Assembly: GCA_030645735.1 (NCBI GenBank)
Contig: JAUSNP010000003.1
Coordinates: 27,608 to 91,607 of the forward strand
Length of the DNA: 64,000 bases
Origin: Candidatus Moraniibacteriota bacterium
GTDB lineage: Bacteria; Patescibacteriota; Minisyncoccia; Moranbacterales; UBA2206
Direction of reading: 5' to 3'
The notes beneath the pieces were generated by a model, which made no database searches, was not told the DNA's origin, and saw nothing but the letters and a program-made list of their open reading frames with translations. Position 1 is the stretch's first letter; each line of letters opens with the position of its first letter. This document shows positions 10,586 through 40,828 of this stretch, one piece after another. Made by a program: the position numbers and the translations under genes.

Positions 10586-10615
10586 CCCAAAATAAAAAAG
10601 TGCAAGGCTCCGCGA
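10586..10615. repeat. Right copy of the 30-bp direct repeat; overlaps the 3' end of tRNA-Asn
   Basis: Identical to 9514..9543. Confidence 0.8.
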
Positions 10616-12248: not shown

Positions 12249-12377
12249 ATTTTTGCTAATTTACAATTTCCAATTTTCAGTTTACAATGAATTTTCAATT
12301 ATTAAATTTTCAAAAAATAATAATTGAACATTGTAAATTTATTGTAAATTGTGAATTGATAATTGAAGATTTGTATA

Positions 12378-15723: not shown

Positions 15724-16599
15724 TCAATTGCCTATCTTTCTAACTTTTCCACCATGCAACATTTTTGCATTTTTATTTGTAATAACTTTCTTACCTGTTT
15801 TAGTTTCAATGTCTTTACGTGCATTGCCCGCTATGCCCCCACCTTCCCGCGCTACAATCTTGTTTTCATCTAAATTCTTTGGTTCACGAGTTTCAGAAAT
15901 TTCAGTGGTGGCTGTTTCGGCCAACATATTCAAAACCAATTCCAGATTAGTCATATTGTCACGCAAATTTTCTTTCTTGAGATTTTTATAGCTTTTGTAT
16001 TCTTTAGTTGTCATGCCCGCCCATGCCTGTGTGATTTCATTGGTCAAAATTGCAAACTCCAAGCCCTCTTTGACGCCTCGTTTTTCCCACTCATCTGTCA
16101 AAGATTTGCGAATTTCAATGCTCTTCAATCGTTGATTCACCCATTCTGGAGAATAGCCTTTTTGCAAATATGTTTTGAGAGCGCGATTGATTGCCAGTTC
16201 AGGATCAGCCATTTCCTCCAATCTTTCATAACCCACGCGTGCCAACCATAATTTGAATGGCTCTGCATTGGGTGAAGGAATAGATTGGATGAGACGCAAT
16301 AATGTTTCTGTATCAGCAACATCAGTGAGGCGCATTTTTCCATCTTGAGCAATCATTTTCAAACCGTTACATTTTGTAACGGTTTCATTTGAACCTTCAT
16401 CAATTAAACGCTTTTTAAGAACGCGCCAATATACTTGAGGATTATCACTATTTGTCAAAATTGAAATTACATCAACCACTGAAAAATACCACAATTCCTT
16501 TTCGCCATCCCACTGTCGACGGATTTCATTGCCTTCAAAAATTGCAACGACTTTTGTTTTTATTTTTTTCATACTATTTTTTTGAAAAATTAGACTCAC
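15724..16599 (-). CDS. DinD-like protein with an N-terminal Bro-N-type domain (paralogue 1 of 3)
   Basis: N-terminus FEGNEIRRQWDGEKELWYFSVVDVISIL is Bro-N-like. The C-terminus shares the ENLRDNM..ELV..ML and KKGGxIAGxAR blocks with the 20937..21779 and 39980..40828 copies, and from memory with E. coli DinD. An alternative start is the ATG at 16572. Confidence 0.65.
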   Translation of the reverse strand: MSLIFQKNSMKKIKTKVVAIFEGNEIRRQWDGEKELWYFSVVDVISILTNSDNPQVYWRVLKKRLIDEGSNETVTKCNGLKMIAQDGKMRLTDVADTETLLRLIQSIPSPNAEPFKLWLARVGYERLEEMADPELAINRALKTYLQKGYSPEWVNQRLKSIEIRKSLTDEWEKRGVKEGLEFAILTNEITQAWAGMTTKEYKSYKNLKKENLRDNMTNLELVLNMLAETATTEISETREPKNLDENKIVAREGGGIAGNARKDIETKTGKKVITNKNAKMLHGGKVRKIGN

Positions 16600-20936: not shown

Positions 20937-21779
20937 TTATTTTCCATTTTTCAACAATTTTTTATTCTGCGGAACTTGCAAATAATTTTCTTTTTTAATA
21001 ACCATGCTACCAGATTCTAGTTCTAGATTTTTTCGAGCGTCGCCAGCAATTTTTCCACCCTTTTGGGCGGCCACTTTGTTTTCAGAAAATCCGACGGCAT
21101 TTTTGCTAACAGCGATTCTAGTCGTGGAAGCTTCACCTAACATAGAAAAGATCAACTCCAAGTCATCCATATGATCACGCAAGTTTTCTCTCTTCAATCC
21201 CTTGTGTTCTTTGTATTCGCTGGGTGTCATATCAAAAGTTGCCCTGGATATTTCGGCTGTCAAAATTGCAAACTCCCGATCTTCTTTGATGTCTCGATTT
21301 TTCCATTCATCCGTCAATTCTTCACGAATGGCAATACCTCGCATTCTTTTTTCAATCCATGCTTCTGAATATCCTTTTAGCTTATACAATTCCCTAGTCC
21401 GCTTAGTTGCCAACTCAGGATCTTCAATTTCCTTTATTCTGTCATAGCCAACTTTAGCCAACCACCTTTTCAGTGGTTCAGCCTTTGGCGAAGGAATCGA
21501 TTGAACTATACGAAGCATGGTTTCAGTGTTGGCACAATCAGTTTCTCTAAACTTGCCGTCAGTAGCTTCCATTTTCAACTGTCCGATTTTATCGGACACT
21601 TCAATATAACCCTCACTCACTAACTTTGTTTTAAGATCACTCCAATATTTCCTTGCTCTGTCCGTGCCCGTTAAAATTCCTACTACGTCAATAACCGAAA
21701 ACCACCATTCATCCTGATATACAGCTTTTCTAATTTCCATGCCTTGAAAAATAGCTAATCCTTTATTTGTTTTTTCCAT
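20937..21779 (-). CDS. DinD-like protein with Bro-N-type N-terminus (paralogue 2 of 3)
   Basis: FQGMEIRKAVYQDEWWFSVIDVVGIL and ...ENLRDHMDDLELIFSMLGE...KGGKIAGDARK. It shares a conserved 5' region (tttttatttttattg..cttaYAGTG) and the palindromic site with paralogue 3. Confidence 0.65.
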   Translation of the reverse strand: MEKTNKGLAIFQGMEIRKAVYQDEWWFSVIDVVGILTGTDRARKYWSDLKTKLVSEGYIEVSDKIGQLKMEATDGKFRETDCANTETMLRIVQSIPSPKAEPLKRWLAKVGYDRIKEIEDPELATKRTRELYKLKGYSEAWIEKRMRGIAIREELTDEWKNRDIKEDREFAILTAEISRATFDMTPSEYKEHKGLKRENLRDHMDDLELIFSMLGEASTTRIAVSKNAVGFSENKVAAQKGGKIAGDARKNLELESGSMVIKKENYLQVPQNKKLLKNGK

Positions 21780-23263: not shown

Positions 23264-23653
23264 TTAAGCGTTACTTGTTTTGTTTGTTAGGAATTTATCT
23301 AAAGCAATGAGCTTAAAATATAGCTCCTGAATTAACTTTTGAGATTTTTCATAGTCCTGCATCGTAATATATTTTTGACTAAGAGAAATCTCTAAACAAG
23401 TCATGGTTTCCATCAATGATCCGAGAGCAATTCTTATGAAAGAGGCAAAGTCCTTCTTAGTTCTTTTTATACTGCCTTCCGCGATATTAAGTGGCCCTGA
23501 AACTGCCGATCTTCTTATTTGAGAGACCAAAGAAAACTTTTCCTCACTTGGAAATTTTTTTGTAATTTCATAAATCATATCAACAAGTTGCATTCCAAGC
23601 TTCCAAACTTCTAGACGATAGAATCCATATTCAACTTTTTGCATAATTTTCAA
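23264..23653 (-). CDS. Four-helix-bundle protein (23S rRNA intervening-sequence protein family)
   Basis: YRLEVWKLGMQLVDMIYEITKKFPSEEKFSLVSQIRRSAVSGPLNIAEGS is characteristic of TIGR02436-type proteins. Confidence 0.7.
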   Translation of the reverse strand: MKIMQKVEYGFYRLEVWKLGMQLVDMIYEITKKFPSEEKFSLVSQIRRSAVSGPLNIAEGSIKRTKKDFASFIRIALGSLMETMTCLEISLSQKYITMQDYEKSQKLIQELYFKLIALDKFLTNKTSNA

Positions 23654-24917: not shown

Positions 24918-25370
24918 ATGAAAATGCTCACTCCCTATCTCGTTGTCTTGATTCCCTTGATTGTTTTGGCCTTGGTTCGAGTTTTGAAATTTGTCATTTT
25001 CTATTTCCGCCACAACCGCGATTTCAAATACACTCTCGAGCATGCCATGACCTATGGTCACATGCCCAGCGTTCATTCAGCCCTGATGGCTTCGATGGTG
25101 GTTTCAGTTGGTCACTATGAAGGCATTGGTTCTGGCGCTTTCGCCATTGCACTTATCATGGCTATCTTGACTATTGATGATGCCACTCGTCTACGAGTTT
25201 ACATGGGTGAGCACAGTCGCTACATCAACATGATCGTCGACAAAATCGGTGCCGATGAAACAGACTATCCCCGCCTCAAAGAAAGAATGGGTCACAAACC
25301 CGAAGAAGCACTAGTGGGTGGAATTCTTGGCCTAGCATTAACTATCCTACTTATAACATTTTTGAAATAA
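24918..25370 (+). CDS. Divergent PAP2-family membrane protein (YuiD/DUF212-like)
   Basis: GHMPSVHSALMASMVVSVG and the helical layout typical of divergent PAP2 proteins. Confidence 0.7.
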   Translation: MKMLTPYLVVLIPLIVLALVRVLKFVIFYFRHNRDFKYTLEHAMTYGHMPSVHSALMASMVVSVGHYEGIGSGAFAIALIMAILTIDDATRLRVYMGEHSRYINMIVDKIGADETDYPRLKERMGHKPEEALVGGILGLALTILLITFLK

Positions 25371-25419
25371 GTCTAAATTCTAAAGACTAAAAACTAAACC
25401 AAGACTAAGGAATTTAAGT

Positions 25420-25773
25420 ATGAAGACTAATAATTTAGAAATTCGTACCGTAAAATTTAGTGGTGAAATTATCGTCCTTGTTAAGAAATTAAAAAGAGAC
25501 ATTATTAATATCCCATTGATAAGTCAAATTGTAAGATCAGCCACAAGTATTGGCGCAAATTATTGCGAATCACAGGGCTCCAGTTCTAAAAAAGATTTCA
25601 AGAACAAGCTTTATATTTGTAAAAAAGAATGCAAAGAAACAAAATATTGGCTAGAAATTATAGCGAAATCAAATCCTGAGCACGCAGAAGAATGTCGAGA
25701 ATTATGGAAAGAAGCTCAAGAATTAACTCTTATTTTTTCTAAGTCCATCCTGACTTTAGAAAACAAATCGTGA
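25420..25773 (+). CDS. Four-helix-bundle protein (23S rRNA IVS protein family), second copy
   Basis: IPLISQIVRSATSIGANYCESQGSSSKKDFKNKLYICKKECKETKYWLEII. Confidence 0.7.
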   Translation: MKTNNLEIRTVKFSGEIIVLVKKLKRDIINIPLISQIVRSATSIGANYCESQGSSSKKDFKNKLYICKKECKETKYWLEIIAKSNPEHAEECRELWKEAQELTLIFSKSILTLENKS

Positions 25774-25828
25774 TTGAAAATTTATACTTTATTACTTTAA
25801 ACTTCTTTTAGTCTTTGGTACTTAGTCC

Positions 25829-27124
25829 TTAGACTTTTATTTTAGCTAATTCTTCTTGAATAACCTTTTTATCATTCCACTCAATTCTCTGATCCCCAAC
25901 TGCCATTGTTTCCTCAGCGCCTTTGCCAGTGACAATTACAATATCATTCGCCTTTGCTAATGACAGCGCTTTGGCGATGGCTTCACGGCGATCAAAGATT
26001 TTCCAAAAGTTTTGTCCTTCGGTTTTGTTCTTCACACCACTAGCCACTTCGTTGATGATTTGTTGTGGGTCTTCATGATAGGGGTCTTCATTGGTGACGA
26101 TGACATAATCAGCAGAAGCCGAAACAATCTCACCCATCAAAGGGCGCTTGCCACGATCACGCTCACCACAGGAACCAAAAACCGCAATGATTCGGCTATC
26201 AGTTTTTTTCACTGAGGTCAGATATTGATAGAGCTTTTGCAAAGAGTCAGGCGTCACCGCATAATCAATCATCACGTTCAAATTTTTGTCGTTGGCAATT
26301 GATTCAAGTCGTCCGGCCACACCAGTGATTTTTGCCAAAGCATTTGCTGATTGTTCCAAGGAAATGTTTTGTGAAATTCCCACAGCCACCGCTGCCAGAG
26401 AATTTTCAATATTAAATTCCCCGGGAAGATTAATTTTAAATTCACAACCTGAAACCTGAAATGCAGAATTATAAATGTCCAACTTGATATTATTCGCAAA
26501 AATATTTTGAGATTTGAGATTTGAGATTTGAGATTTTTTTGTATCTTGTATCTTGTGATTTGTATCTTTCAAGCTGTATCCAAACTTAACTGCATTATTG
26601 TATTGTAAAAACTCCTCGGGTTTTTCCATATCCAAATTCACCACCGCCACATCTGCCATCCCAAATAATTTAGCTTTGGCCTGGCGATATTGCTCAATAG
26701 TCTTGTGATAGTCCAAATGTTCACGCGTCACATTGGTGATGACTGCCACAGCATAGTGAATCCCCCACACGCGACACTGGTCCAAAGAATGTGATGAAGT
26801 TTCCAAAATCAGATAATCACATTTAGCCTCCACCGCTTTTTTGATGAACTTCTGAGTGGCAAATGGAGAAAGGGTGGTGTACTTGGTCACATTCACCCAC
26901 TCCTCAGCGCCCAATTTGAAATTTATAGTTGAAGCCATGGCGACAGTGTGTCCTGCTTCTTCCAAAATTTTGGCAATCATCTGACAAGTGGTGGTTTTGC
27001 CGTTAGTTCCAGTCACCCCAATCACCTTGATATTTCTCGACGGAAAACCATACGCAAAATTCGCCACTACCGCTTGCGCCAAGTGGTAGATGTTTTTGAT
27101 GGATTGTGGGATCAGTTTTTTCAT
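25829..27124 (-). CDS. Mur ligase family protein (MurE-like), carrying an in-frame 7-bp-unit tandem-repeat insertion
   Basis: IGVTGTNGKTTTCQMIAKIL P-loop, Mur ligase middle and C-terminal domains. A (gagattt)x4 plus (gtatctt)n block at 26509..26570 encodes ...KIQDTKKSQISNLKSQ... Confidence 0.75.
   Translation of the reverse strand: MKKLIPQSIKNIYHLAQAVVANFAYGFPSRNIKVIGVTGTNGKTTTCQMIAKILEEAGHTVAMASTINFKLGAEEWVNVTKYTTLSPFATQKFIKKAVEAKCDYLILETSSHSLDQCRVWGIHYAVAVITNVTREHLDYHKTIEQYRQAKAKLFGMADVAVVNLDMEKPEEFLQYNNAVKFGYSLKDTNHKIQDTKKSQISNLKSQNIFANNIKLDIYNSAFQVSGCEFKINLPGEFNIENSLAAVAVGISQNISLEQSANALAKITGVAGRLESIANDKNLNVMIDYAVTPDSLQKLYQYLTSVKKTDSRIIAVFGSCGERDRGKRPLMGEIVSASADYVIVTNEDPYHEDPQQIINEVASGVKNKTEGQNFWKIFDRREAIAKALSLAKANDIVIVTGKGAEETMAVGDQRIEWNDKKVIQEELAKIKV
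26509..26570. repeat. 7-bp-unit tandem repeats (gagattt)x4 followed by gtatctt-like units, inside the Mur ligase CDS
   Basis: ttgagatttgagatttgagatttgagatttttttgtatcttgtatcttgtgatttgtatctttc. The reading frame is maintained. Confidence 0.8.
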
Positions 27125-27164
27125 ATATTCATTATACCTTGATTTTCTTATTTAAAAAAATACA

Positions 27165-27188
27165 GGCCGAGTTCATTTGAACTCGGCC
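27165..27188 (-). terminator. Hairpin terminator for the 27224..28186 gene
   Basis: ggccgagttcatttgaactcggcc is a perfect 9-bp stem, with a T-run on the minus strand. Confidence 0.5.
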
Positions 27189-27223
27189 CTTTTAATATGC
27201 GCTCTCCTTATTTCCAAAGAAAA

Positions 27224-28186
27224 TTATTTGGATTCTAACATCTTGCTGTCAAATAAAGGGATTGCTAACTGGATATTATTTCTATGCATCCAAGCTAGCC
27301 GTAGTTTTCTTGCAAGACCTGGCAAAGACCACGCCCGCAAAAGTTCACCTCCTGGACAGAAAGTGCGTTGACAGCAATGCCAGCAAGCCCTCTCTTGCAA
27401 ACTATAACCCATATCAATCCCCGAATGTATGCCATTGAAAACCAGTCCTTTAGGACATCCGCCAAATTCTGCTAACATCTTGTCTATTGGGACTCCGACC
27501 TCGCCGTTTTCAAGCTCAATAATTGGCAGATTCCAACCATTAACAATAATCCTTCCGCCGCCACAACCGCCAATCAAATCCGCGGCTCTCAGTTGCTGAC
27601 CCATGAGATCGTCATCATCTATAATTGGAAGTGCAGGAATCATGATGATATCTGGATCAAGCTGATCTTCGATGGCTATCTCAGAGACTTCACGCGTGCC
27701 TGAATCTTCATTTGGATATTCAGAAAAAATTCTGGCCACACCTTCTTCTGGTGGATTTTCCAAAAAAGACCTAAGCGTTTCTATGAAATACCTGAAGTCA
27801 TTGTCCTGAAAAAATCCCCCTGCTCCCTGCCAAGACCAACTGCTTTTAACCTCCTCTTTAGCTAAATTTATAAGCCCGTCAACTGCATCTAGAATCAAAA
27901 CTGCTTCTTGTCTATCCTGTTCAGACAATTGCCCGTCTCTGATTCTTGACCAAACTTCATTGAGTATGAACTGAATTTTCATTTTCCAATAGCTCGACAA
28001 CCTCTCAGTATACCCTTGCCTTCTTGAAATATCACGCTCCTCCTTTTCCATGATAGCCAGCATCTCCCTAATCTCAGAATCAAGCTCCGGCTTATACTGT
28101 CTGATCAATTCCCACATCCTTGAATAAAAATGCGGGAGGGATACCAAGATGCCACCAAACATAACTCCACAAATTTCCTGTGTCAT
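27224..28186 (-). CDS. Hypothetical protein (320 aa), moderately GC-richer than neighbours
   Basis: Long ORF with a terminator downstream. Acidic N-terminal half, Gly/Cys-containing C-terminal half (GGCGGGRIIVNGW...CWHCCQRTFCPGG). No family recognised. Confidence 0.5.
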   Translation of the reverse strand: MTQEICGVMFGGILVSLPHFYSRMWELIRQYKPELDSEIREMLAIMEKEERDISRRQGYTERLSSYWKMKIQFILNEVWSRIRDGQLSEQDRQEAVLILDAVDGLINLAKEEVKSSWSWQGAGGFFQDNDFRYFIETLRSFLENPPEEGVARIFSEYPNEDSGTREVSEIAIEDQLDPDIIMIPALPIIDDDDLMGQQLRAADLIGGCGGGRIIVNGWNLPIIELENGEVGVPIDKMLAEFGGCPKGLVFNGIHSGIDMGYSLQERACWHCCQRTFCPGGELLRAWSLPGLARKLRLAWMHRNNIQLAIPLFDSKMLESK

Positions 28187-28295
28187 CTCGCTACCCCCAA
28201 AAGTTTAAGTTTAATAGGATGATTATGTTAAAGGACTGATTAAATATTTAATCATTAAATAACATAAAATGCAAGTGTTCTGCTAAAGCTTATTT

Positions 28296-29318
28296 TTAAA
28301 AGAAACTTTTGATTTTCTGAATAATACGATAGGCCAAATATTTTCTTCGGCCAATTATAATGTCATAACAACCGGGGAACTTGATTGAAACAGTTACTGG
28401 AGAAAAACTTTGTTTGAATCTGGTGATGCCCGCCCAATTATTATCCGCTGTTCCTGTTTTCACTCCGCCGAAATCATACCCAATCGCCCCAAATTTTTTA
28501 GCATCTTGAATTTGCTTCCATTGCAACAGATAGGGCGCCATCACATTGCGAAAACGATCATCCGAGGCGCCATGCAAATAAGTTACTGTGTCATCAAAGA
28601 AAATCACAATATTAGCTGCAATTATTTCCCCGCCTCGCGTCGACGAGCGGTCGTCTCCGCAAGTCGAGGCGGGACCTTCAAATTCTGCATAATATAGTTT
28701 TATATTTTCTCCTGGAATTGCCTCAAACATTTTTTGATAATAATCGCGCGGATGCGGAGTGATGCTTTGACGAGCGGAAGTGATTTCCACTAAGTCGCAA
28801 AATTTGTCCACATATTTTTTTTCATTGGAAATTCCCACTCGCACACCTTTCTTTTCAGCTAGTCTGATGTTATAACGGGTTTTCGGTTTCATCTCAGCTA
28901 GCAATGTTTCTTCACTTTTGGTGATATCAATAATAAATAATTCTCTAGGTTGCATATCATGTGGCGCTTTCACGACAAACGCATCAACACTTTTCTTGGT
29001 CAAATCCAAAATTTCTTGTGACGCGGGTTCAATGCGAATCCAGCCAGCATGATGGTCTTCAGCCAAGCCAATTAGATTTTTAAAATAATTAGAAACATTC
29101 TTGTCTCTGATGTTAAAAATATTGCCCCGCGGGATATAAAAATATTTGCCGACGATTGGCAATTTGTGCTCGATGATGTTGGACCAGAATCGTTCGCCCT
29201 TGATGTTCAAAGTTTTTTTGCCAGCCAATTCTTGAAATTCTCGCCACCAGTCCGACTGTAAAAATCCTTCCCCAGGGGCTTGTTGCATCAGGTCATTAAT
29301 TTTCAAATTATCTCGCAT
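28296..29318 (-). CDS. FemAB-family peptidyltransferase (aminoacyl-tRNA-dependent peptidoglycan branch formation), with an in-frame palindromic-element insertion
   Basis: FemAB-like architecture and length. The insertion encodes GPASTCGDDRSSTRGGE. Confidence 0.65.
   Translation of the reverse strand: MRDNLKINDLMQQAPGEGFLQSDWWREFQELAGKKTLNIKGERFWSNIIEHKLPIVGKYFYIPRGNIFNIRDKNVSNYFKNLIGLAEDHHAGWIRIEPASQEILDLTKKSVDAFVVKAPHDMQPRELFIIDITKSEETLLAEMKPKTRYNIRLAEKKGVRVGISNEKKYVDKFCDLVEITSARQSITPHPRDYYQKMFEAIPGENIKLYYAEFEGPASTCGDDRSSTRGGEIIAANIVIFFDDTVTYLHGASDDRFRNVMAPYLLQWKQIQDAKKFGAIGYDFGGVKTGTADNNWAGITRFKQSFSPVTVSIKFPGCYDIIIGRRKYLAYRIIQKIKSFF
28627..28672. repeat. GC-rich ~47-bp palindromic element, copy A (ccccgcctcgcgtcgacgagcggtcgtctccgcaagtcgaggcggga)
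   Basis: 9-bp terminal inverted repeat cccgcctcg/cgaggcggg with internal palindrome cgtcgacg. About 65% GC inside an AT-rich gene. Near-identical to 36275..36321. Confidence 0.85.
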
Positions 29319-29321
29319 AAT

Positions 29322-29894
29322 TTATTTCTTGCCTAAACTCCGTAAAGCCAAACCAATGCGTTGCCCAATATCAGTCACATCCTTGGCCACCAGCTTCAAA
29401 GCATCGCGCGCCTCGGTCACAGAATAGCCCATAGAAACCAAAGCTTCAATCGCATCAGAATCTGAGACAGCATCCTCCTTTTCGCTCTCTGGCATGTCCG
29501 CCACCTTGTTTCTGAGCTCCAAAATGACCCGCTCAGCGGTTTTCTTACCTACCCCTGAGACTTTGGTCAGAATCGATGAATCCTCGTTCAGAATGGCCGT
29601 TTTGATAGTTTGCGGGGTTGCAATCGACAAAATCCCCAAACCAGCTTTAGGGCCGATGCCTGAGATGGAAATCAAGAGCTCAAACATGTCCAATTCTTCC
29701 AGTGTCAGAAAGCCATACAAATCCAAGGCATCTTCACGCACCGAAGTGTGAATGAAAAAATCCACCCTTTCCACGCCCGCAATTTTGCCCAACGCATAAG
29801 TTGTGAGATGCACTTTGTAGCCCACGCCAGCCACATCCACCACGACAAACTTGTCCTTGCGATATTCAATTGTGCCCTTTATCTTCGCAATCAT
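29322..29894 (-). CDS. ruvA: Holliday junction helicase subunit RuvA
   Basis: MIAKIKGTI..., HhH domains ISGIGPKAGLGIL and VSGVGKKTAERV. Confidence 0.9.
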   Translation of the reverse strand: MIAKIKGTIEYRKDKFVVVDVAGVGYKVHLTTYALGKIAGVERVDFFIHTSVREDALDLYGFLTLEELDMFELLISISGIGPKAGLGILSIATPQTIKTAILNEDSSILTKVSGVGKKTAERVILELRNKVADMPESEKEDAVSDSDAIEALVSMGYSVTEARDALKLVAKDVTDIGQRIGLALRSLGKK

Positions 29895-30005
29895 CCTGTG
29901 TGATTTGCCTATTTATTAACTACTAGAATTCTAGCTTTTTTTCACCAAAAAGAAAAGCGCTGTTGCCAGCGCTTTCCCCCTATTCATATTCCACTCGGGC
30001 TAGCT

Positions 30006-30125
30006 TAGGATTTTTGCAAAAGCTAGCGTTACTACCAAGATGCCATAGCTGGCTAATCCAACAGCAACCATTACAACAGTTGCCATCGAAAGATGAAACA
30101 ACATTTCTAATTTATCCATATGATT
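30006..30125 (-). CDS. Possible 39-aa hydrophobic peptide (MDKLEMLFHLSMATVVMVAVGLASYGILVVTLAFAKILS)
   Basis: Small ORF followed by the hairpin aaagcgctgttgccagcgcttt at about 29958-29980. Below the ORF-track cutoff. Speculative. Confidence 0.25.
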
Positions 30126-30316
30126 TAAAATTAAATAAATTACGATAATTTTATCCATTTACCCTTAAATACAGTGAATATAATGGATATGTGAACTTAG
30201 CACCCAGCCAATTTTTTGTCAAATAAATTTAGCGCTTTTTGCCCCAGCTCTTGCCTAAACCAAAATACTATGCTAAAAATAGTAGGTAACTAAAAAGAGA
30301 TAAATTTCAAAAAACT

Positions 30317-30589
30317 ATGCCAATCAAAACATCCGCTAAGAAATACATGCGCGTGACTGAGCGAAAGACTGAGATTAACAAGAAAATCAAAGGTCTTTTC
30401 CGTAGCGCTATCAAGAAAGCCACTGAAGCCATCGCCAAAAACGATGCCAAGACAGCTGGAGAATGGGCCAAAAAAGCCTTCCAAGCCTTGGATAAAGCTG
30501 CCAAAAAAGAAGTGATCAGCAAAAACACCGCTGCTCGCAAGAAATCGAGATTGAACAAGAAAGTTAAGGCTATTACAATCAAGAAATAA
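30317..30589 (+). CDS. rpsT: 30S ribosomal protein S20
   Basis: MPIKTSAKKYMRVTERKTEINKKIKGLFRSAIKKATEAIAKND, 90 aa. Confidence 0.9.
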   Translation: MPIKTSAKKYMRVTERKTEINKKIKGLFRSAIKKATEAIAKNDAKTAGEWAKKAFQALDKAAKKEVISKNTAARKKSRLNKKVKAITIKK

Positions 30590-30606
30590 TCCTCCTCAAT
30601 CAAAAA

Positions 30607-30632
30607 ACACCCCCGAAGGGTGTTTTTTGATT
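30607..30632 (+). terminator. Rho-independent terminator after rpsT
   Basis: acacccccgaagggtgt followed by tttttga. Confidence 0.6.
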
Positions 30633-30762
30633 GCAAGTCTAATTTCTAAAGTTTAAAGTCTAAAAGAAGTATTTAAGTCTAAAGTTTGAAGTATTTTTTA
30701 ACTTTATACTTTTAAACTTTAGTCTTGCTTTAGACTTTAGTATTTAGACCTTAGACTTTCCG

Positions 30763-31728
30763 TTAAAGTTCAACTACAAACTTATCTAGTGCCACCTTCA
30801 CCTCAATCTGCCCGGTTTTGATTTGCGTGTCGAGCTGGCTGAGTTTTTCATAGACGGCTTTCAATTTCGGCAAAGGGAAATTGCGCAATTGGCCGAGACT
30901 TTTTTTGACCACAAAGGGATGCAAACCAGCCGTTTTGGCTATCGCTGATTCATTGCCAAAAAACTGACCTTGCAAATCCGCCACCTTCAAAAGATTGCGG
31001 AATTGATAAACAAACATCGAGAAGATGTAGAAAGGATCCTCGCCTTTTTTCAAATGTTCCTGCAACAAACGCAAAGCCTCTTTTTTGTTGTTATTGGCCA
31101 ACGCGTCAATGGTATTGAAAATGTTGGTATCCAAATTGGCGCGCACTAGCAAATCTACATCTTCTGATTGAATGACTTTTCCGTGGGCAAAATCAACCAA
31201 CTTGCGCAATTCCTTGTCTAATGAATTGGTATCACTCCCGACAAACAAAATCAATTTTTCCAAAGCGCTTCTGGAGATGCCACTCTTATCATCAAGCTCT
31301 TTGATTCTTTGCACAATCCACTGAGTCAATTTGAGACCGCTCAATTTTTCGAAATTCTGAGACTTGGCAATTTTTTCCAACACTTTATACAGCTTGCCGT
31401 TTTTCTTGGGCTGGCCATCTTCCCAAAAAATCAACACTAGATCTAGATCAGTTTGAATATTTTTTTCATACTTTTTCAAATAATCTAGCAATTCGTCTTT
31501 TTCAATGTCTGTCCCCGCCTCAACCATATCCCGCACAATCACCAATCTTTTAGGCGCCAACAGATTGGGCGTGTTCAAAACATCTAACAATTTCTGTTTA
31601 TTGTTTTGCCCATAATCAAAAACTGACAAACCCGAGCCAATCGTGTCGGTTGCCAAAAACTTATTTTTGATTTCTAGAACTTTTTGACTAGATCGAAATG
31701 AGTCTTCGCCGTACAAAAAAAATAACAT
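30763..31728 (-). CDS. holA: DNA polymerase III delta subunit
   Basis: MLFFLYGEDSF N-terminus, 321 aa, delta-subunit-like helical C-terminal domain. Confidence 0.7.
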   Translation of the reverse strand: MLFFLYGEDSFRSSQKVLEIKNKFLATDTIGSGLSVFDYGQNNKQKLLDVLNTPNLLAPKRLVIVRDMVEAGTDIEKDELLDYLKKYEKNIQTDLDLVLIFWEDGQPKKNGKLYKVLEKIAKSQNFEKLSGLKLTQWIVQRIKELDDKSGISRSALEKLILFVGSDTNSLDKELRKLVDFAHGKVIQSEDVDLLVRANLDTNIFNTIDALANNNKKEALRLLQEHLKKGEDPFYIFSMFVYQFRNLLKVADLQGQFFGNESAIAKTAGLHPFVVKKSLGQLRNFPLPKLKAVYEKLSQLDTQIKTGQIEVKVALDKFVVEL

Positions 31729-31832
31729 GCCTAAATTTTTAGTGATTATTCTCTAATGTCTAGTATATAGCATATCAGGCAAACAAAAAAGAAAGCCCTT
31801 TTTCAAGGGCTTTCTAATGAATTCTATTGAGA

Positions 31833-32990
31833 CTAAACTCCCGGTGTCCACTTCAAGGATTGTCCTGGTTCTAGAATTTCCACCCAGATCTGACCTGGCA
31901 CAAATTTCATTTCTTGACCAGCTTGGTCATAAAAGAATAGTTTGCTATCTAGTCTTGCTTTGTCTTTCTTCCAAGTTCCGATATATTCTTTACCGTTCAA
32001 ATAATAATGCGCTTCGCCTGAATCGGATGAATCATACCATGGGTCACCGATTTGAACATTGTTATAGCGACCAGAAATGCTTTCTACTCCAGTCTTTTTG
32101 ATTTCTTCTACATTCTTCCATGGGTCACTCATACCTTTTCCAACATAATCATAGTCCGCCATAATTTGCTCTGAAGCTGCGGTCAAAACCACAACATTTT
32201 TTGGCGCCACTCGTTGGTCATTGTTGCGATCAGTGTCAATGGCCTCACCCCAAGTTCGCAAATATGAGTTGGTAGCTTTGTCATAATCATATTCAGCATC
32301 ATACGGTTTTTTGAAAGCTACACGCAAATGACCGCCTGTTGGTCTCTGATCTTCTGGAGCCTCTCCTTGATGAGCATAGCCAGAAAATTTTCCTTCCGTG
32401 CGATATTTCTTATCAGCAATCATAGCCAAAATATTGTCCTTAGTGATGTGACCAGTGTCCTCCAAGCGCATTTTGCCAGAAACATCCCAGCGGGCGCAAT
32501 AGTTGCCAGTCATACAATCATAATTGTCGATTACCTTTTCTTTCAAAAGATCTAGTGCAAAATGTGATCCGCCCCAGTGAATGAAGACTGCGTCCAATCC
32601 TTTGGCCAAAGCGATGTAGTCATGTCGTGAACTGCGAATTGCGCCAACCTCCTTCGGGATGTCACAAACATACACGCCCATAAGCCTAGTCACTGAGCCT
32701 GTGAAAGCGGGCATTTCAATCACCATATCCGCTTGAGAAAATCCAGCAGCTGGTCGCGCTTGCACATCCGACGGTTGCATCACGGCCACTGGTCGCTTGT
32801 TCCAATTTTCACAAGCAATGCCAGAAATTGGACTGACTGGTCCTTCGTTGGCAATTGGATATTCCTGTGGTTGACCTCCATTGTTAATTTCGATTTTTTT
32901 GACATCTTTTGATGAGGAGAAAAAATACCATCCTCCTGCCACCACTACGATTGCCACTATAGCAATAATCGCTTTCTGCTTCGTACTCAT
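31833..32990 (-). CDS. DUF3048-domain exported protein (YerB-like)
   Basis: N-terminal TM, then ...RPVAVMQPSDVQARPAAGFSQADMVIEMPAFTGSVTRLMGVY, typical of DUF3048 N/C domains. Confidence 0.65.
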   Translation of the reverse strand: MSTKQKAIIAIVAIVVVAGGWYFFSSSKDVKKIEINNGGQPQEYPIANEGPVSPISGIACENWNKRPVAVMQPSDVQARPAAGFSQADMVIEMPAFTGSVTRLMGVYVCDIPKEVGAIRSSRHDYIALAKGLDAVFIHWGGSHFALDLLKEKVIDNYDCMTGNYCARWDVSGKMRLEDTGHITKDNILAMIADKKYRTEGKFSGYAHQGEAPEDQRPTGGHLRVAFKKPYDAEYDYDKATNSYLRTWGEAIDTDRNNDQRVAPKNVVVLTAASEQIMADYDYVGKGMSDPWKNVEEIKKTGVESISGRYNNVQIGDPWYDSSDSGEAHYYLNGKEYIGTWKKDKARLDSKLFFYDQAGQEMKFVPGQIWVEILEPGQSLKWTPGV

Positions 32991-33053
32991 TTATTTTTTA
33001 GACAGGAAAATGAAATTTAGTGTTTCATGTTTCATGTTTTATGTTATATGAAT

Positions 33054-34001
33054 TTATTTTTGACATTTAGGACAAAAGAAAACACTTCTCTGTCCAATTG
33101 TTTCACGCACGATTATTGTATCACATTTTTGACATTTTTCACCAGCCTTGCGATAAACTTTCAAAACTTTCTGAAATCCACCAGGGGCGCCTGAGGTGTC
33201 GCGATAATCTGAATCAGAAGTTCCGCGCAATTTGATGGCATGGCGCAAAATCTTGCCGATCCAGCCAAAAAGCTTTTTTCTTTCAATTGTTGAGATGTTT
33301 CCTGCCAGCCTAGTTGGTAAAATTCCGGCGACAAACAAAATCTCACTCCGATAGATATTGCCAATGCCAGCAATCAAATTTTGATCCATCAATATGATGC
33401 CTATTGGACTCTTGGCTTTTCTATCCAAAATCTCATTGAATTTTTTGAAAGTGAAATCCGGACTCACCGCGTCAATTCCCAAAGCTTTGATTTCTGGCAA
33501 CTCCAAAACCTTGTCTGTGTCCACCAAAACAATTTTGGCAAATTTACGCACATCTGAAAACTCTATTACTTTATTGAATTTAATATTTTTTTTATCTTTG
33601 GTGTTTTGAGTTTCAGTTTTTGATATTGTTTCGGATTTCGATTTTCGGATTTCGGATTTTAAATAAAATTTATGTCGAATATACTGATTCACCCTATCTT
33701 CAAAATAATCCTTTCCATCCACTTTCGACTTTCGACTTTGGACTTTGGACTTGATTAAAAGGTGTCCCGTCATCTTCAGATGCAAATATAGCGTTTTCTC
33801 GCCCGACAAATCCACAAAAATATTTTTACCGATTCGGCGCACGCCCAAAATTTTTCGTCCCACAATTTCTTTTTTGAAAACAGCCAAGGTTTTTCCTTTG
33901 ATGGCTTTGGGCCACTCACTCCAAAAATCGGTGATTGTGTCACCCTTGATTTTTTCATTCAAATCATTCACCACCGTCTGGACCTCTGGCAATTCTGGCA
34001 T
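33054..34001 (-). CDS. mutM: Formamidopyrimidine-DNA glycosylase, with internal tandem-repeat insertions
   Basis: MPELPEVQTVVNDL N-terminus (Pro2, Glu3), H2TH region, and a C-terminal zinc finger CQKCDTIIVRETIGQRSVFFCPKCQ. Repeat blocks at 33601..33670 and 33719..33756 encode KSKxxxx-type low-complexity segments. Confidence 0.85.
   Translation of the reverse strand: MPELPEVQTVVNDLNEKIKGDTITDFWSEWPKAIKGKTLAVFKKEIVGRKILGVRRIGKNIFVDLSGEKTLYLHLKMTGHLLIKSKVQSRKSKVDGKDYFEDRVNQYIRHKFYLKSEIRKSKSETISKTETQNTKDKKNIKFNKVIEFSDVRKFAKIVLVDTDKVLELPEIKALGIDAVSPDFTFKKFNEILDRKAKSPIGIILMDQNLIAGIGNIYRSEILFVAGILPTRLAGNISTIERKKLFGWIGKILRHAIKLRGTSDSDYRDTSGAPGGFQKVLKVYRKAGEKCQKCDTIIVRETIGQRSVFFCPKCQK
33601..33756. 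repeat. Two blocks of short tandem repeats (tttcggatttcgattttcggatttcggatttt; ctttcgactttcgactttggactttggacttg) about 50 bp apart, inside fpg
   Basis: Seen directly. The fpg frame is maintained. Confidence 0.8.
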
Positions 34002-34120
34002 AAAAATTTATTACTTTTTATTAAGCTATTTTAGCATTATTCACGCATTACATCAATTTGACCATTATAAAAGGGCTCGTGCAGAATCACACAAGCCCTT
34101 TGTTTTGAAGTATTCAGCAT

Positions 34121-34537
34121 TTATGCAGCTAGGTCATAATCGTACGGCGTACATTTACAACTTACGCCGACTAGCATCAGAAAATTTTCACTAGTAATCT
34201 CCTTGACTACATACACTCGACTCTTGCCCCTTACGACAACATTGCAGCCTTTGACAATCCCTTTTCTGGTAATGTTTTCCAAACGACCTGCTATTGCCTT
34301 CGTTCTTGCATTTGCAAACTCGCAGTCCGTTGTTGCCTTGTTTGAAAGAGATGCATCGATCGCTGGTAATGCATGATTTCTTCCTTGATAAACCTTGTAA
34401 CTCTTCCAATTCATATCTCCTTCTAACTGCGACATAGAAAAAATCCTTCTAAATAAAATTATTCTTCCCGTCGAATTTTCGACGACCCATTGCCCAAAAG
34501 AACTAAACACTATCAGAAAATTTACAGCAAAAATCAT
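34121..34537 (-). CDS. Hypothetical exported protein (138 aa)
   Basis: N-terminal hydrophobic segment MIFAVNFLIVFSSFGQW. No family recognised. Confidence 0.4.
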   Translation of the reverse strand: MIFAVNFLIVFSSFGQWVVENSTGRIILFRRIFSMSQLEGDMNWKSYKVYQGRNHALPAIDASLSNKATTDCEFANARTKAIAGRLENITRKGIVKGCNVVVRGKSRVYVVKEITSENFLMLVGVSCKCTPYDYDLAA

Positions 34538-34604
34538 TTTGTGTCAATCAAAAAAGTCGGGAAACCCGACTAATTTTTAATTTTGAGATTTCAATTTTAA
34601 ACTT

Positions 34605-37343
34605 TTATATTTCTCCCCAATTATCCCCAATCTGCACATCCACTACCAATGGAACCTTGAGTTTGATGACTTGTTCCATGGCGGTTTTTATTTTTTGCGC
34701 AAAAGTTTCCGCGATTTCTTCTTTGACTTCAAACAAAAGTTCATCATGCACTTGCAAGATTGTGCGGGCCTGGCCGGCAAATTCAGCCACGACTTTTTCA
34801 GCTTCAATCATAGCCAATTTCATGATGTCAGCCGCCATGCCTTGGATTGGCATATTGATGGCCATACGTTCAGCACCAGATTGCACTTGGAAATTGGCCG
34901 AGTTTATTTCTGGAATGTAACGACGGCGACCCAGTTGTGTTTCCACGAATAAATTTTTCTTGGCTTCCTGCTTGGTGTCGTGCATATATTTGGCCACGCC
35001 CGAGAACTTTTCCATATATTCATTGATGAAATTCTTGGCTTCTTCACGATCAATGCCGGCCGAAGCCGCAAAGCCAAACACGCCCATACCATAGATGATG
35101 CCGAAGTTCAACGCCTTGGCCTTGCTGCGCATTTTTTCTGTGACTTGCGACATGGAAACCTTGTTGATGATGGAAGCAGTCGCGCGATGAATGTCTTCGC
35201 CTTTGGTGAAAGCTTCGATCATGTTTTTGTCGCCCGACACATGCGCCACCACTCGCAAATCAATTTGTGAATAATCAGCACTGACCAATTTGAAACCTTT
35301 CTCTGCCTCAAAAGCCGTGCGCAAAAGTTGCCCCACATCAGTTTTGATCGGAATGTTTTGCAAATTTGGATCAGAAGATGACAGTCGTCCAGTGGCTGCC
35401 ACCGCTTGATTGAACGAGGTGTGAATGCGTGAATTATCATCCACCAACTTCGGCAATGAATCTAGATAGGTTGTCTTCAATTTGAAAATTTCACGATATT
35501 CTTCAATCTTTTCAATGATCTTGTGTTCTCCGCGCAATTTTGTGAGCTCAGCTGAAGCAGTAGAAAAACCAGTTTTCAATTTCTTCACATTGTCTGTCGG
35601 AATCTGCAAAGTTTCAAACAAAACATCCGCCACTTGTTTGGGCGAACTGATATTGAAATCTTTGCCCGCCAGCTGGTGAATGCTTTTTTCCAGAATGGCG
35701 ATGCGTTTTTCAATGGTTTCCGAAATGCCAACAAAAATAGTCTTGTTTAAATGGATGCCATGCATTTCAATCTCAGCCAAAATCTTGACCAAGGGCATTT
35801 CAATTTTTTGCAAAACAGTTTCCAGATTATGCTTCTCACCCTGTTGCATGGAAATATCTTGAATTTTTTTCTGATGAATGCTTTCCACTTTGAAAACATA
35901 GTCTGCGCGCTGACAAATCTGTTGTGCCACTTCAGTCGCCGATTCAATTTCCAAGCCCAGTTGGCCTTTTTTGTTAGCTGCTGACAATTCTTCACCCAAT
36001 TCTTCCAAAACGATGTTTTCCAATTCAACTTTGCCACCGGGATTCAAAACATAGGCCGACAACATCACGTCCCAATAAATATTTTTGAGTTCAATTCCAT
36101 ATTTTCGCAAAACTTCAAACGCATGTTTCAAATCATAACCAATTTTTCTGATTTTTTCATTTTCAAAAATGGTTTTCAACCTGGCAAAACTCTCAACTGA
36201 ATATTCCACATAACCGGCGCGTCCGGTCTTGTGACAAATCGCCACGCCCTGGATGGTGCTGGCAAAATATTTTTCCCCGCCTCGCGTCGACGAGTGGTCG
36301 TCTCCACGAGTCGAGGCGGGTCCAACTGTCTTTAGTGTAATCGCAATTTCTTCTTGCTCACTTAATAATTTCACGAAATCATCCATTTTTTCTGGGGTTA
36401 TCAATTCAAATTTGAAATCTTTCACGCCAGCCGCATCAGTACTACTCGCTTTCATATCTCCACTTCCTTGTCCTGGCAATCGCTTAATCAATGAAAAGAA
36501 ATTCAATTCTTGAAAAAGTCTGACAATCGTCGGCCGATCAAACTCGCGCGTCACCGCTTTTTCCAAATCCAATTGCACCGGCGCGTCCAACACAATGGTT
36601 GCCAACCACTTGCTTTTGAAAGCCAAGACTTTGTTTTTTTCCAATTTGTCTTTCACTGCGCCTTTGATTTCCGCAATGTTTTCATAAACCTTTTCCACCG
36701 TGTCATATTTTTGCAAAAGAGTGGTAGCGGTTTTTTCACCGATGCCTTTGACGCCTGGAATATTGTCCGAAGCATCCCCACGCAAACTCTTGTAATCAAT
36801 CATTTGATCCGGTCGCAAACCGAACCTTTCAAAAACTTCTGGTGCGCCATAGAGCACAGTGTCAGTAATGCCACGACGCAACGCAAAAACTTTGGTAGTG
36901 TCATTCACTAATTGCAAAGTGTCCAAATCGCCAGTCACGATGATATTTTCAATGCCTGCATTCAATTTTTTTGATTGTGTCACGATGGTTCCAATCACAT
37001 CATCCGCCTCAAAACCTTCTTTTTCATAAATCGGAATGTTGAAAGCGCGCACCAATTCCTTGACGCGATCAATCTGCGCATACAACTCATCCGGCGCCTT
37101 GGTGCGAGTGGCTTTGTATTCCGCATATTCCTCATGACGAAAAGTCGGCGCCTTCAAATCGAAAGTGGCGATGATATAGTCCGGCTGAAATCTTTCAATC
37201 ACGCTGAGCAGTGTCGAAGCAAAACCATAAACCGCATTCACCAACTCGCCTGACTTGGTCGACAACGGTGGCAAAGCATGAAACGAACGATGAATAATCG
37301 CATTGCCGTCGATAACTACTAGTTTTTTAGTCTTTTTTTCCAT
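34605..37343 (-). CDS. polA: DNA polymerase I (5'-3' exonuclease, 3'-5' exonuclease-like and polymerase domains), with an in-frame palindromic-element insertion
   Basis: 5'-nuclease N-terminus (VIDGNAIIHRSFHALPPL), and polymerase motifs RRxAKxxNFGxxYG (RSKAKALNFGIIYG) and VHDELLFEV. The insertion encodes GPASTRGDDHSSTRGGE between the nuclease and polymerase regions. Confidence 0.9.
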   Translation of the reverse strand: MEKKTKKLVVIDGNAIIHRSFHALPPLSTKSGELVNAVYGFASTLLSVIERFQPDYIIATFDLKAPTFRHEEYAEYKATRTKAPDELYAQIDRVKELVRAFNIPIYEKEGFEADDVIGTIVTQSKKLNAGIENIIVTGDLDTLQLVNDTTKVFALRRGITDTVLYGAPEVFERFGLRPDQMIDYKSLRGDASDNIPGVKGIGEKTATTLLQKYDTVEKVYENIAEIKGAVKDKLEKNKVLAFKSKWLATIVLDAPVQLDLEKAVTREFDRPTIVRLFQELNFFSLIKRLPGQGSGDMKASSTDAAGVKDFKFELITPEKMDDFVKLLSEQEEIAITLKTVGPASTRGDDHSSTRGGEKYFASTIQGVAICHKTGRAGYVEYSVESFARLKTIFENEKIRKIGYDLKHAFEVLRKYGIELKNIYWDVMLSAYVLNPGGKVELENIVLEELGEELSAANKKGQLGLEIESATEVAQQICQRADYVFKVESIHQKKIQDISMQQGEKHNLETVLQKIEMPLVKILAEIEMHGIHLNKTIFVGISETIEKRIAILEKSIHQLAGKDFNISSPKQVADVLFETLQIPTDNVKKLKTGFSTASAELTKLRGEHKIIEKIEEYREIFKLKTTYLDSLPKLVDDNSRIHTSFNQAVAATGRLSSSDPNLQNIPIKTDVGQLLRTAFEAEKGFKLVSADYSQIDLRVVAHVSGDKNMIEAFTKGEDIHRATASIINKVSMSQVTEKMRSKAKALNFGIIYGMGVFGFAASAGIDREEAKNFINEYMEKFSGVAKYMHDTKQEAKKNLFVETQLGRRRYIPEINSANFQVQSGAERMAINMPIQGMAADIMKLAMIEAEKVVAEFAGQARTILQVHDELLFEVKEEIAETFAQKIKTAMEQVIKLKVPLVVDVQIGDNWGEI
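36275..36321. repeat. GC-rich ~47-bp palindromic element, copy B (ccccgcctcgcgtcgacgagtggtcgtctccacgagtcgaggcgggt)
   Basis: About 43/47 identical to copy A and in the same orientation. Similar A/T-then-CCCC left flank. Confidence 0.85.
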
Positions 37344-39979: not shown

Positions 39980-40828
39980 CTAATTTTTCAATTTTTTTAC
40001 AGTTTTATTTTTTAGCAAAAAATTCCTGCCAGTCACCACACTTTTGCCAGTTTTTTCTTCCAAGGCTAGTCTCGCGTCTTTGGCGATTTTGCCACCTTTT
40101 TTCGCTGGGATTTTATTTTCTTCCAAACCTCTCGCCTCATCTGTTTCCGCAATTCTTCTGGTAGAAATTTCAGCCAGTGCCGTGAAAATCAATTCTTCTT
40201 CACTCATGTGATCACGCAAATTTTGTGTTTTCAGGCCTTTCAAATTTTTGTGATCTTTGACTGATAAATCTGTCCATTCTTCATGAATGATGTTGGTCAG
40301 GATCGCAAACTCTTCGCCTCTTTTCACTTCATTGCCACTCCAATAATCCGTCAGCTTATTTCTCACTTCCTGCCCCATCATTCTTTGTTGAATCCATGCC
40401 GCACTGCGTCCTTGTTTTTGCCAATATTCTCTGGAACGATTGAGGGCTATTTCCGGATCAGTCATTTCCTGCATTCTTTCATAACCAACTTTCGCTAACC
40501 ACAATTTTACTGGTTCGGCTTTTGGACTTGGTACCGATTGAATCAATCGCAATAAAGTTTCTACATTAGCTGCATCAGTCTCATAATATTTACCATCAGT
40601 AGCCATAAATTTCAGTTGGTGACAATTTGTCACCGACTCATTTCCCTCTTTCCCCAATCTCTCCTTAAGTTTATTCCAGTATTTTCTAGCTGTTTTATAA
40701 TCATTCTGTTGAATTAAGGCTTGCATAATATCAACCACCGAAAAATACCAAACCTCAGTTTTCTCGTCATAATGCCGACGAATCTTAAAGTTTTCAAAAA
40801 TAGCCAGTGAGTTTTGATTTTTTTCCAT
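39980..40828 (-). CDS. DinD-like protein with Bro-N-type N-terminus (paralogue 3 of 3)
   Basis: FENFKIRRHYDEKTEVWYFSVVDIMQAL and ...QNLRDHMSEEELIFTALAE...KKGGKIAKDAR. Confidence 0.65.
   Translation of the reverse strand: MEKNQNSLAIFENFKIRRHYDEKTEVWYFSVVDIMQALIQQNDYKTARKYWNKLKERLGKEGNESVTNCHQLKFMATDGKYYETDAANVETLLRLIQSVPSPKAEPVKLWLAKVGYERMQEMTDPEIALNRSREYWQKQGRSAAWIQQRMMGQEVRNKLTDYWSGNEVKRGEEFAILTNIIHEEWTDLSVKDHKNLKGLKTQNLRDHMSEEELIFTALAEISTRRIAETDEARGLEENKIPAKKGGKIAKDARLALEEKTGKSVVTGRNFLLKNKTVKKLKN

Follow-up and report, generated by a model that had tools for sequence, protein, structure and literature searches.

Tandem simple sequence repeats (SSRs) of 7-bp units are present in excess in bacteria, including inverted intergenic pairs, and this excess has tentatively been linked to the footprint of the polymerase (PMC4692102). 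Examples quoted in the same source from Mrazek et al. (2007) are the GGGAATC repeats of Xanthomonas and the GGGGA(T/C)T repeats of Nostoc. Rickettsia palindromic elements (RPEs) are selfish DNA located in frame within protein-coding genes (Ogata et al. 2000, as cited in PMC10969869). Tandem repeats of Borgs create disordered protein regions (PMC9879509), and 7-bp repeats occur at a phase-variable locus, the hmw1A promoter of Haemophilus influenzae (PMC8262952). Here, we analyzed a 64,000-nucleotide stretch (hereafter, the window) of the genome of a Candidatus Moraniibacteriota bacterium (assembly GCA_030645735.1, contig JAUSNP010000003.1, positions 27,608 to 91,607), in which arrays of 7-bp units lie in frame inside the genes of a MurE-type Mur ligase, Fpg, and TsaE.

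This lineage belongs to the candidate phyla radiation (CPR), bacteria with tiny genomes for which experimental genetics hardly exists. No description of such arrays for CPR bacteria was found in literature searches. In heterocystous cyanobacteria, short tandemly repeated repetitive (STRR) sequences have the units CCCCAGT, TTGGTCA, and CAACAGT. Elhai et al. (2008, cited in PMC3116915) reportedly described these cyanobacterial heptamers and small dispersed repeats (SDRs) of less than 30 nt that appear mobile without a known enzyme, some of them preserving the reading frame. The repeat units in open reading frames (ORFs) of Borgs are said to be multiples of three nucleotides.

Heptamer arrays in the Mur ligase, fpg, and tsaE genes

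All DNA compared came from metagenome assemblies, and the part of the genome covered was the window. Fetched comparison loci are labeled L0xx, and P0243 is the label of a TsaE relative. An earlier note on this DNA had placed 7-bp repeats inside the genes of the Mur ligase, fpg, and tsaE and in the spacer at 33020–33050. All of these arrays were located with Tandem Repeats Finder (TRF) and in the sequence itself; the ORFs stay open, and the translations of all three genes yield the low-complexity peptides that it quoted. Its description of the host genes as essential is too strong for fpg, a repair gene that is not strictly essential. The modules are made up of a single block or a pair of blocks, each ~30 nt long with some four 7-bp units; on the A-rich strand, the unit mostly reads AAANNNN.

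The Mur ligase gene (25829–27124, minus strand) was identified by its translation and the Pfam domains Mur_ligase_M/C, and its product is 100% identical to MDO8240516.1, encoded on a 233-kb contig of a Candidatus Moranbacteria metagenome-assembled genome (MAG) (Parcubacteria/CPR). It contains a composite module at 26500–26563 (minus strand), a 64-nt segment shared with MurE of L081 and encoding TNHKIQDTKKSQISNLKSQNIF. In the sense direction, the composite comprises GATACAA, ATCACAA, two further GATACAA units, an A7 junction, and (AAATCTC) x4.4, followed by AAAATATTTT. The B block, (AAATCTC)n in the sense strand and (TTTGAGA) x4.4 on the plus strand, is perfect (26506–26536, minus strand; TRF score 62, 100% matches), and the A block, (GATACAA)n in the sense strand, was called by TRF as (TTGTATC) x4.3 on the plus strand (26539–26568, minus strand). 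Exactly 48 nt are missing at this site in the MurE orthologues of L082, the closest one with 84% DNA identity, and L083. Across 120 MurE orthologues, the insert at this site ranges from none to more than 40 residues and has heterogeneous low-complexity content. In the AlphaFold2 model of the ligase (mean predicted local distance difference test [pLDDT] score of 87), residues 185–203 are unstructured between the β-strands 179–184 and 204–209, with pLDDT <50 at residues 193–203; in this predicted structure, the insert occupies a disordered β-hairpin loop. The module DNA has no predicted fold (z = +0.45).

The fpg (MutM) gene (33054–34001, minus strand; Pfam Fapy_DNA_glyco, H2TH, and zf-FPG), whose translated product is 100% identical to MDO8240523.1 of the same contig, contains two insertion hot spots. 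Site 1 (33721–33752, minus strand) reads (AAGTCCA)2(AAGTCGA)2 AAGTGGA in the sense strand and encodes KSKVQSRKSKVDG; TRF called it as (ACTTTCG) x4.6 with 96% matches. About four heptamer units are present at site 1 in every lineage, and the unit sequence differs: L086 has (AAATCTC) x4.4 there, and the heptamers of L087 are degenerate. Site 2 is a 78-nt insertion (33573–33650, minus strand; amino acids 118–143, IRKSKSETISKTETQNTKDKKNIKFN) consisting of four AAATCCG-type units and a degenerate A-rich tail with 7-nt periodicity (lag-7 identity 0.54). The corresponding TRF array, with TTTCGGA-type units, spans 33629–33660. The 78 nt are missing from L085, with 92.5% DNA identity, as well as from L086 and L087. 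Compared to solved structures, Fpg has about 41 extra residues. No fold was predicted for the site-2 insert (z = +0.29).

The tsaE gene (43249–43776, minus strand; translation and Pfam TsaE) carries two blocks on the minus strand. Block 2 (43446–43475) is a perfect (GATCCAC) x4.3 array in the sense strand encoding HDPRSTIH (TRF unit CGTGGAT, score 60, 100% matches). Block 1 (43489–43536) is (AACGCAAAACGTGG) x2.8 in the sense strand and encodes NVERKTWNAKRK; its TRF call is a 14-mer x2.8 at 43493–43531 (score 78, 100% matches). The two blocks pair as a hairpin (z = −3.2), and this is the only in-gene module of those folded to do so. Residues 81–110 of TsaE (30 residues) stand where solved TsaE has 4 (72–75), which makes about 26 extra. 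The loop between the SPTF and YHID.YR motifs varies from ~5 to ~50 residues across orthologues, and the relative P0243, with 71% identity, lacks the insert.

The view of the earlier note that these segments are insertions was borne out by the 48 nt and 78 nt missing from the closest MurE and fpg orthologues and by the TsaE relative without an insert. Insert positions fall at gaps in alignments to solved structures; these gaps and the AlphaFold2 loop with pLDDT <50 indicate fold-compatible surface positions of the kind used by RPE-like elements. The three sites are hot spots: among 70–118 distinct orthologue segments per site, loop lengths run from 5–12 to 41–50 residues. Self-identity of the loop peptides peaks at a distance of 7 residues (0.12–0.18), while it does not exceed 0.135 at other loop distances and is 0.05–0.10 in the remaining protein. 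Since this 7-residue periodicity is the protein footprint of a 7-nt periodicity in DNA, the variable loops of the orthologues share an origin. According to the earlier note, equivalent low-complexity linkers of non-repetitive DNA at the same positions across the phylum would mark the segments as ordinary disordered loops. One half of this was found, as orthologues have low-complexity loops at the same positions; as for the other half, these loops differ from each other, are missing in the closest relatives, and carry the 7-residue periodicity, which makes them instances of one phenomenon and not ordinary linkers.

Period-7 enrichment in the window and related lineages

A simple scan of the window found 8 period-7 arrays, compared with 0.65 expected from Markov-2 simulated sequence; in the same scan, periods 4–6 were at expectation, and periods 8 and 9 were above it on 1 and 3 arrays only. 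No period other than 7 was strongly enriched. The lag-autocorrelation scan returned 5 regions at lag 7 and 0, 0, 1, 3, 0, and 0 regions at lags 5, 6, 8, 9, 10, and 11, respectively. About 11 period-7 arrays in the window spacers come in addition to those listed in the earlier note. Perfect period-7 runs are bimodal in length: the background tail stops at 19 nt, and a separate cluster at 30–33 nt corresponds to four units and a few bases.

Among the matches listed in a profile search of genome contigs with the MurE alignment, one was a Moranbacteria locus; the other 79 loci served as negative controls. TRF arrays of period 7 with at least 2.5 copies occurred at 15.6 per 100 kb in the window and at 29.6 in the further Moranbacteria loci. 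The values were 5.4 for the remaining CPR loci and 2.7 for non-CPR bacteria (1.27 Mb); in the latter, periods 6 and 9, which are codon-compatible, prevail. The Moranbacteria density is, therefore, 6–11 times that of unrelated bacteria, and this lineage-wide excess supports the genome-wide process proposed in the earlier note. The defining traits of heptanucleotide SSRs are present, namely, an excess over composition and head-to-tail 7-bp units, perfect at 26506 and 43446 (x4.3–4.4) and with 84%–96% matches in the others.

Locus L005 (7.8 kb, 35% GC), labeled as Saccharibacteria, produced 15 TRF rows of period 7, 14, or 21, overlapping calls included. Its intergenic arrays are of the AAATTTC type, and one spacer contains a perfect x4.3 block; the heptamer phenomenon thus reaches beyond Moranbacteria. 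A scan of viral contigs for (AAATCTC)x4 found 7 stretches on 5 distinct contigs, including giant-virus MAG and phage contigs, and was uninformative on CPR bacteria. In one of these contigs, L091 from IMG/VR (69% GC), an exact (AAATCTC) x4 at minus-strand position 712 lies inside very GC-rich phage sequence and has the look of a foreign heptamer block of four units in a setting remote from CPR.

Occurrence of the same modules at different loci

MurE of L081 is 72% identical overall to the window gene (56%–81% in 48-nt windows), yet the 64-nt composite is 100% identical in the two, irregular units included. By our own arithmetic, the chance of 64 consecutive matches at 72% identity is ~7e-10. 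In the MurE gene tree, the window gene, with the module, pairs with L082 (84% identity), without it, and L081, with the module, pairs with L083 (79%), without it. This patchy distribution indicates that the module is younger than its host genes.

Scanning of metagenomes for the module junction revealed one further copy, in frame within a HypF-like carbamoyltransferase gene of L084 (59 nt at 98%). The same gene has (CTACAAA) x4.3 twice, in regions aligning to gaps in solved HypF. The B block 31-mer by itself is present at fpg site 1 of L086. The same element is, therefore, found in frame in unrelated genes. Block 1 of tsaE matches one arm (57977–58008) of an intergenic hairpin element located 14 kb away, with 94% identity over 32 nt and 96% over 26 nt, and the element of the dnaG-rpoD spacer matches an unrelated spacer of L084 (91% over 53 nt). 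The only common edge of the modules is the microhomology ATATTTT, which borders the copies in both MurE and the HypF-like gene; in MurE, it already belongs to the empty site. Of the two options raised in the earlier note, the footprint of a selfish or repeat-generating element is favored by the identical composite in diverged MurE orthologues and in the unrelated HypF-like gene.

An ORF with a partial reverse transcriptase (RVT_1) domain is located directly downstream of the HypF-like gene (L084, 1714–2358); no link to the module was established. A protein-database search with a 60-aa concatenate of the insert peptides gave no candidates.

Reading frame and intergenic arrays

The density of arrays was 1.0 per kb in spacers versus 0.11 per kb in coding sequences (CDS), a ninefold difference. 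Cyclic reading of the sense strand reveals no stop codon in any unit of the perfect in-gene arrays, whereas five of the seven spacer units of the window contain a stop on the tabulated strand and a sixth contains one on the opposite strand. Since 7 = 1 mod 3, seven codons span three units, and the same cyclic heptapeptide results from a block in any phase. The cyclic heptapeptides are KSQISNL, KIQDTRY, DPRSTIH, and LQTTNYK, and the heptapeptide-periodic inserts are rich in Lys, Ser, Gln, Asn, and Ile.

The suggestion of the earlier note that arrays are held to frame-preserving copy numbers agrees with MurE of L095, whose homologous module has the A block and one B-type unit, while the window and L081 have four; the difference of 21 nt equals 7 codons. 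Copies in MurE and the HypF-like gene also differ, with 2 versus 3 A units; the nearest strain compared, L097, is 100% identical to the window. The placement of phase-variable contingency loci was not observed: the arrays lie mid-CDS in loops, and their hosts are the genes of a Mur ligase, Fpg, and TsaE.

Many spacer arrays are inverted pairs folding into long AT-rich hairpins. In the convergent rpsT/holA spacer (30625–30770), (AAGTCTA)n faces (TAGACTT)n (TRF) in a long hairpin (z = −4.8, with 0 of 200 shuffles as good), and the dnaG-rpoD spacer (12240–12370; TRF) contains inverted (AATTTAC)/(AATTGTA) arrays forming a hairpin (z = −3.9). The intergenic hairpin element at 57965–58075 (plus strand), with inverted heptamer and 14-mer arrays, belongs to the family of the tsaE insert (repeat search I3/I4; z = −4.2). 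TRF also identified a (TGTTTCA) x3.6 array downstream of fpg (33021–33045, 94% matches); an AAGACTA/AAGTCTA array (25369–25398; I18), which is 92% complementary to 49683–49706; a (TTTAGAC) x4.3 array upstream of ruvB (49684–49713); and a degenerate heptamer/21-mer array beside the polA stop codon that contains TTTGAGA (34571–34613; family D6). The idea that the arrays are intrinsic terminators was rejected because canonical GC-rich terminators sit beside them and not in them. A hairpin as a general property of the inserts was likewise rejected, as the MurE and fpg site-2 modules do not fold.

The stop codon of MurE (AAA GTC TAA, 25829–25838) lies inside an AAGTCTA-type heptamer array that fills the spacer to the convergent gene (25781–25838; TRF and sequence, repeat search I2). 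The repeat, therefore, supplies the end of this gene.

Other repeats and features of the window

An unbiased comparison of the window genes with syntenic orthologues, covering indels of ≥5 residues, revealed the two heptamer inserts and a 45-nt GC-rich palindrome, CCCGCCTCG...CGAGGCGGG. The palindrome is located in the FemAB-like gene (28629–28673) and polA (36276–36320) as a clean insertion in the same reading frame in both, and encodes the peptide GPAST(C/R)GDD(R/H)SSTRG. It is missing from the orthologues in L087 and L083, and its copies are 92% identical over the enclosing 52-nt repeat D7. By analogy, this palindrome resembles a miniature RPE-like element. Taken together, the heptamer inserts and the GC palindromes indicate that the lineage tolerates small dispersed DNA in conserved genes as a general trait of its genome.

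Locus L097, an independent Logan assembly (k = 31) of the same organism, is 100% identical to window positions 26508–36305. One of its ends is exactly inside the (TTTGAGA) array, and the other is exactly inside the GC palindrome of polA; the sample therefore seems to contain multiple copies of the two end sequences. A break at the (TTTGAGA) array is expected if the 31-mer has several contexts there.

The window represents bacterial DNA of ~40% GC with tightly packed genes, most of them on the minus strand, and its housekeeping genes include rpoD, dnaG, polA, holA, ruvA, ruvB, those of pyruvate kinase, and the FemAB-like gene. Three paralogous Bro-N domain proteins are encoded within 25 kb (15724–16599, 20937–21779, and 39980–40828) and share DNA repeats of 143 nt and 53 nt (D1, D8). 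Two genes of the 23S rRNA intervening sequence protein family (PF05635) lie close to each other (23264–23653 and 25420–25773), and this family again adjoins MurE in relatives. A 1,011-aa protein (45260–48295) is a tandem pair of T2SSE/PilB-type ATPase modules, and its gene contains internal DNA repeats D2 and D12, spaced ~1,340 nt. The N-terminus of RpoD (11950–12248) is a Lys-rich low-complexity extension of ~100 residues on a sigma-70 protein; it is encoded by 12- and 21-nt repeats, a kind distinct from the heptamers.

The orotidine 5'-monophosphate (OMP) decarboxylase gene is flanked by a 72-nt direct repeat (9472–9543 and 10544–10615), the copies of which share 76% identity and match fully over the last 30 nt. 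Its second copy reaches ~8–10 nt into the 3' end of tRNA-Asn (this end is called at 10606 or 10608), and the repeat may represent an att-like duplication. An inverted repeat (43782–43946) with 70-nt arms, 79% complementary, and a 25-nt loop is located at the switch in gene direction, between tsaE and the divergent DHH-family gene; it may be MITE-like (miniature inverted-repeat transposable element) or regulatory.

Origin of the arrays

We consider it probable that the arrays are very small dispersed modules that originate by slippage or template switching and pass through a filter of selection across Moranbacteria and related Parcubacteria. Replication slippage would create and homogenize the blocks, and a copy-and-paste route would carry them to new sites, template switching at short microhomology or other non-homologous insertion being the likeliest; ATATTTT at the module borders may be a hint of such microhomology. 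The copies retained in genes are stop-free, have a net length of 3n, and lie in permissive surface loops, an outcome for which selection is the presumed cause. Viable changes of copy number would go in three-unit steps, and the end product would be a disordered loop tolerated by the enzyme, with the peptides as neutral passengers. A stronger proposal, which seems possible but doubtful, is that Parcubacteria such as Moranbacteria harbor an undescribed class of mobile modules of ~30–60 nt made of 7-bp arrays, which copy themselves without a transposase among spacers and unrelated genes and return time and again to one loop of orthologous genes. Were this true, the modules would keep seeding disordered loops in core enzymes of minimal genomes, and the route could be polymerase- or reverse transcriptase-templated synthesis with a preferred product of ~four units.

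Several observations weigh against dispersal of modules. The full composite is known at three loci only, and the MurE event is not clean, since ~60 nt stand in place of ~12 nt. Neither terminal inverted repeats nor target-site duplications, typical of MITEs, were found at the MurE, fpg, and HypF junctions. A source copy for the fpg site-2 insert was not detected in the 64-kb window or the fetched loci, and a Pfam scan of 57 window proteins revealed no transposase, RAYT (REP-associated tyrosine transposase), or other candidate enzyme. The identity between the window and L081 could be explained by patch-wise homologous exchange of a MurE segment between lineages, with no element-like mobility. 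The block length of 30–33 nt recurs in the L005 spacer and the 69%-GC phage contig, and such a tight length is accounted for neither by frame selection nor by simple slippage.

The arrays might also have arisen purely locally, by slipped-strand mispairing in place, if replication or repair in this lineage favored 7-nt slips and in-frame outcomes in loops were kept, with nothing moving. The over-representation of bacterial heptamer repeats attributed to the polymerase footprint (PMC4692102) fits this scenario, as do the different homogenized units in the same loop of different lineages and the differing numbers of B units (1 or 4) and A units (2 or 3) between copies. We regard it as unlikely, since the identical 64-nt composite, with its irregular ATCACAA unit and A7 junction, occurs in genes of 72% identity while being absent from the closest relative of each carrier, and recurs in the unrelated HypF-like gene. 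In addition, slippage on the ancestral 14 nt cannot account for the non-repetitive tail of the young 78-nt insert of fpg. The arrays could instead be functional, acting in DNA or RNA as protein-binding sites, internal regulatory signals, or phase-variable switches, or in the protein as selected disordered linkers or short linear motifs. The stable hairpins of the spacer arrays (z from −3.9 to −4.8) and a MurE module that stays perfectly conserved in diverged genes speak for a function, and there are precedents in the Borg repeats, argued to make useful disordered regions (PMC9879509), and in the 7-bp repeats driving HMW1A phase variation in H. influenzae (PMC8262952). A function appears improbable because the inserts are absent from the closest relatives of otherwise conserved enzymes, the content and length of the hot spots vary widely among lineages, and the MurE and fpg modules are unstructured (z about +0.3 to +0.45). 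The housekeeping hosts, the mid-CDS position, and the mere ~4 units also differ from contingency loci, and canonical GC-rich terminators are separate from the arrays.

It is very improbable that the inserts are ordinary disordered loops, i.e., AT-biased low-complexity linkers of a small AT-rich genome whose repeats follow from composition alone. Orthologues across the class do have low-complexity segments at the same positions, and the genome is ~40% GC, but composition explains neither the perfect period-7 runs of 30–31 nt above a background stopping at 19 nt nor an excess specific to period 7 relative to composition-matched simulations, nor the 7-residue periodicity in loops and the nucleotide-identical modules in unrelated genes. 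An assembly or sequencing artefact is hardly credible. Every source is a metagenome assembly, and contig L097 breaks exactly at the array; against this, the arrays are in frame, are reproduced with 100% identity in this independent assembly up to the k-mer limit, and are seen in independent samples and assemblers with the host's own diverged sequence on both flanks.

A lineage-wide process would explain much of the length variation and the odd peptides of CPR proteins (KFQISNF-, KSQISNL-, and LQTTNYK-type) and is relevant to alignments, phylogenies, and structure predictions of these proteins. Dispersed heptamer modules would offer a natural system for the entry of non-triplet repeats into coding DNA, with a frame-independent heptapeptide, and possibly a new dispersal route for very small DNA elements. 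The arrays also break k-mer metagenome assemblies, as in L097.

Comparison with known systems

With the heptamer SSRs of Mrazek et al., the arrays share the tandem 7-bp unit, the period-7 excess, the mainly intergenic location, the inverted hairpin-capable pairs, and apparently also the wide variation in length and sequence between related genomes. Unlike those repeats, the units described here are diverse and A/T-rich (AAANNNN) and are not G-rich quadruplex formers; they are also found in frame inside conserved enzymes, form composites shared by unrelated genes, and reside in a CPR host. Similarly to RPEs, the modules are short and dispersed, lie in frame in unrelated housekeeping genes at fold-compatible positions, belong to a small-genome lineage, and have no transposase of their own. 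RPEs are palindromic, ~100–150 bp long, and form families with a conserved peptide, whereas the modules here are 30–78 nt long and consist of 7-bp tandem units. The palindromic or hairpin structure of RPEs was not seen in the MurE module and fpg site 2, and only the tsaE module folds. A closer analogue of RPEs in the window is the 45-nt GC palindrome of polA and the FemAB-like gene.

Contingency loci, too, are built of 7-bp tandem units that are expected to slip. Their arrays are long and located in the promoters or at the 5' ends of genes for surface or virulence factors, where variation is the function, whereas here ~4 units are located mid-CDS in housekeeping enzymes, and a ±1 step would be deleterious. 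Like Borg repeats, the in-gene arrays are perfect, recent, and located in ORFs, and encode disordered low-complexity segments absent from close homologues. Unlike Borg repeats, which reportedly have 3n units, they consist of units of 7 or 14 nt, the frame is kept by total length only, and the 7-residue period of the peptide follows from that of the DNA. Like the STRR sequences and SDRs reported from cyanobacteria, the modules include tandem arrays of heptamers and dispersed repeats of very small size; the phylum is different, and so are the units, which here are AAATCTC, AAGATAC, AAGTCCA, GATCCAC, and others. The traits of heptamer SSRs, RPEs, Borg repeats, and cyanobacterial SDRs are combined here in a new way.

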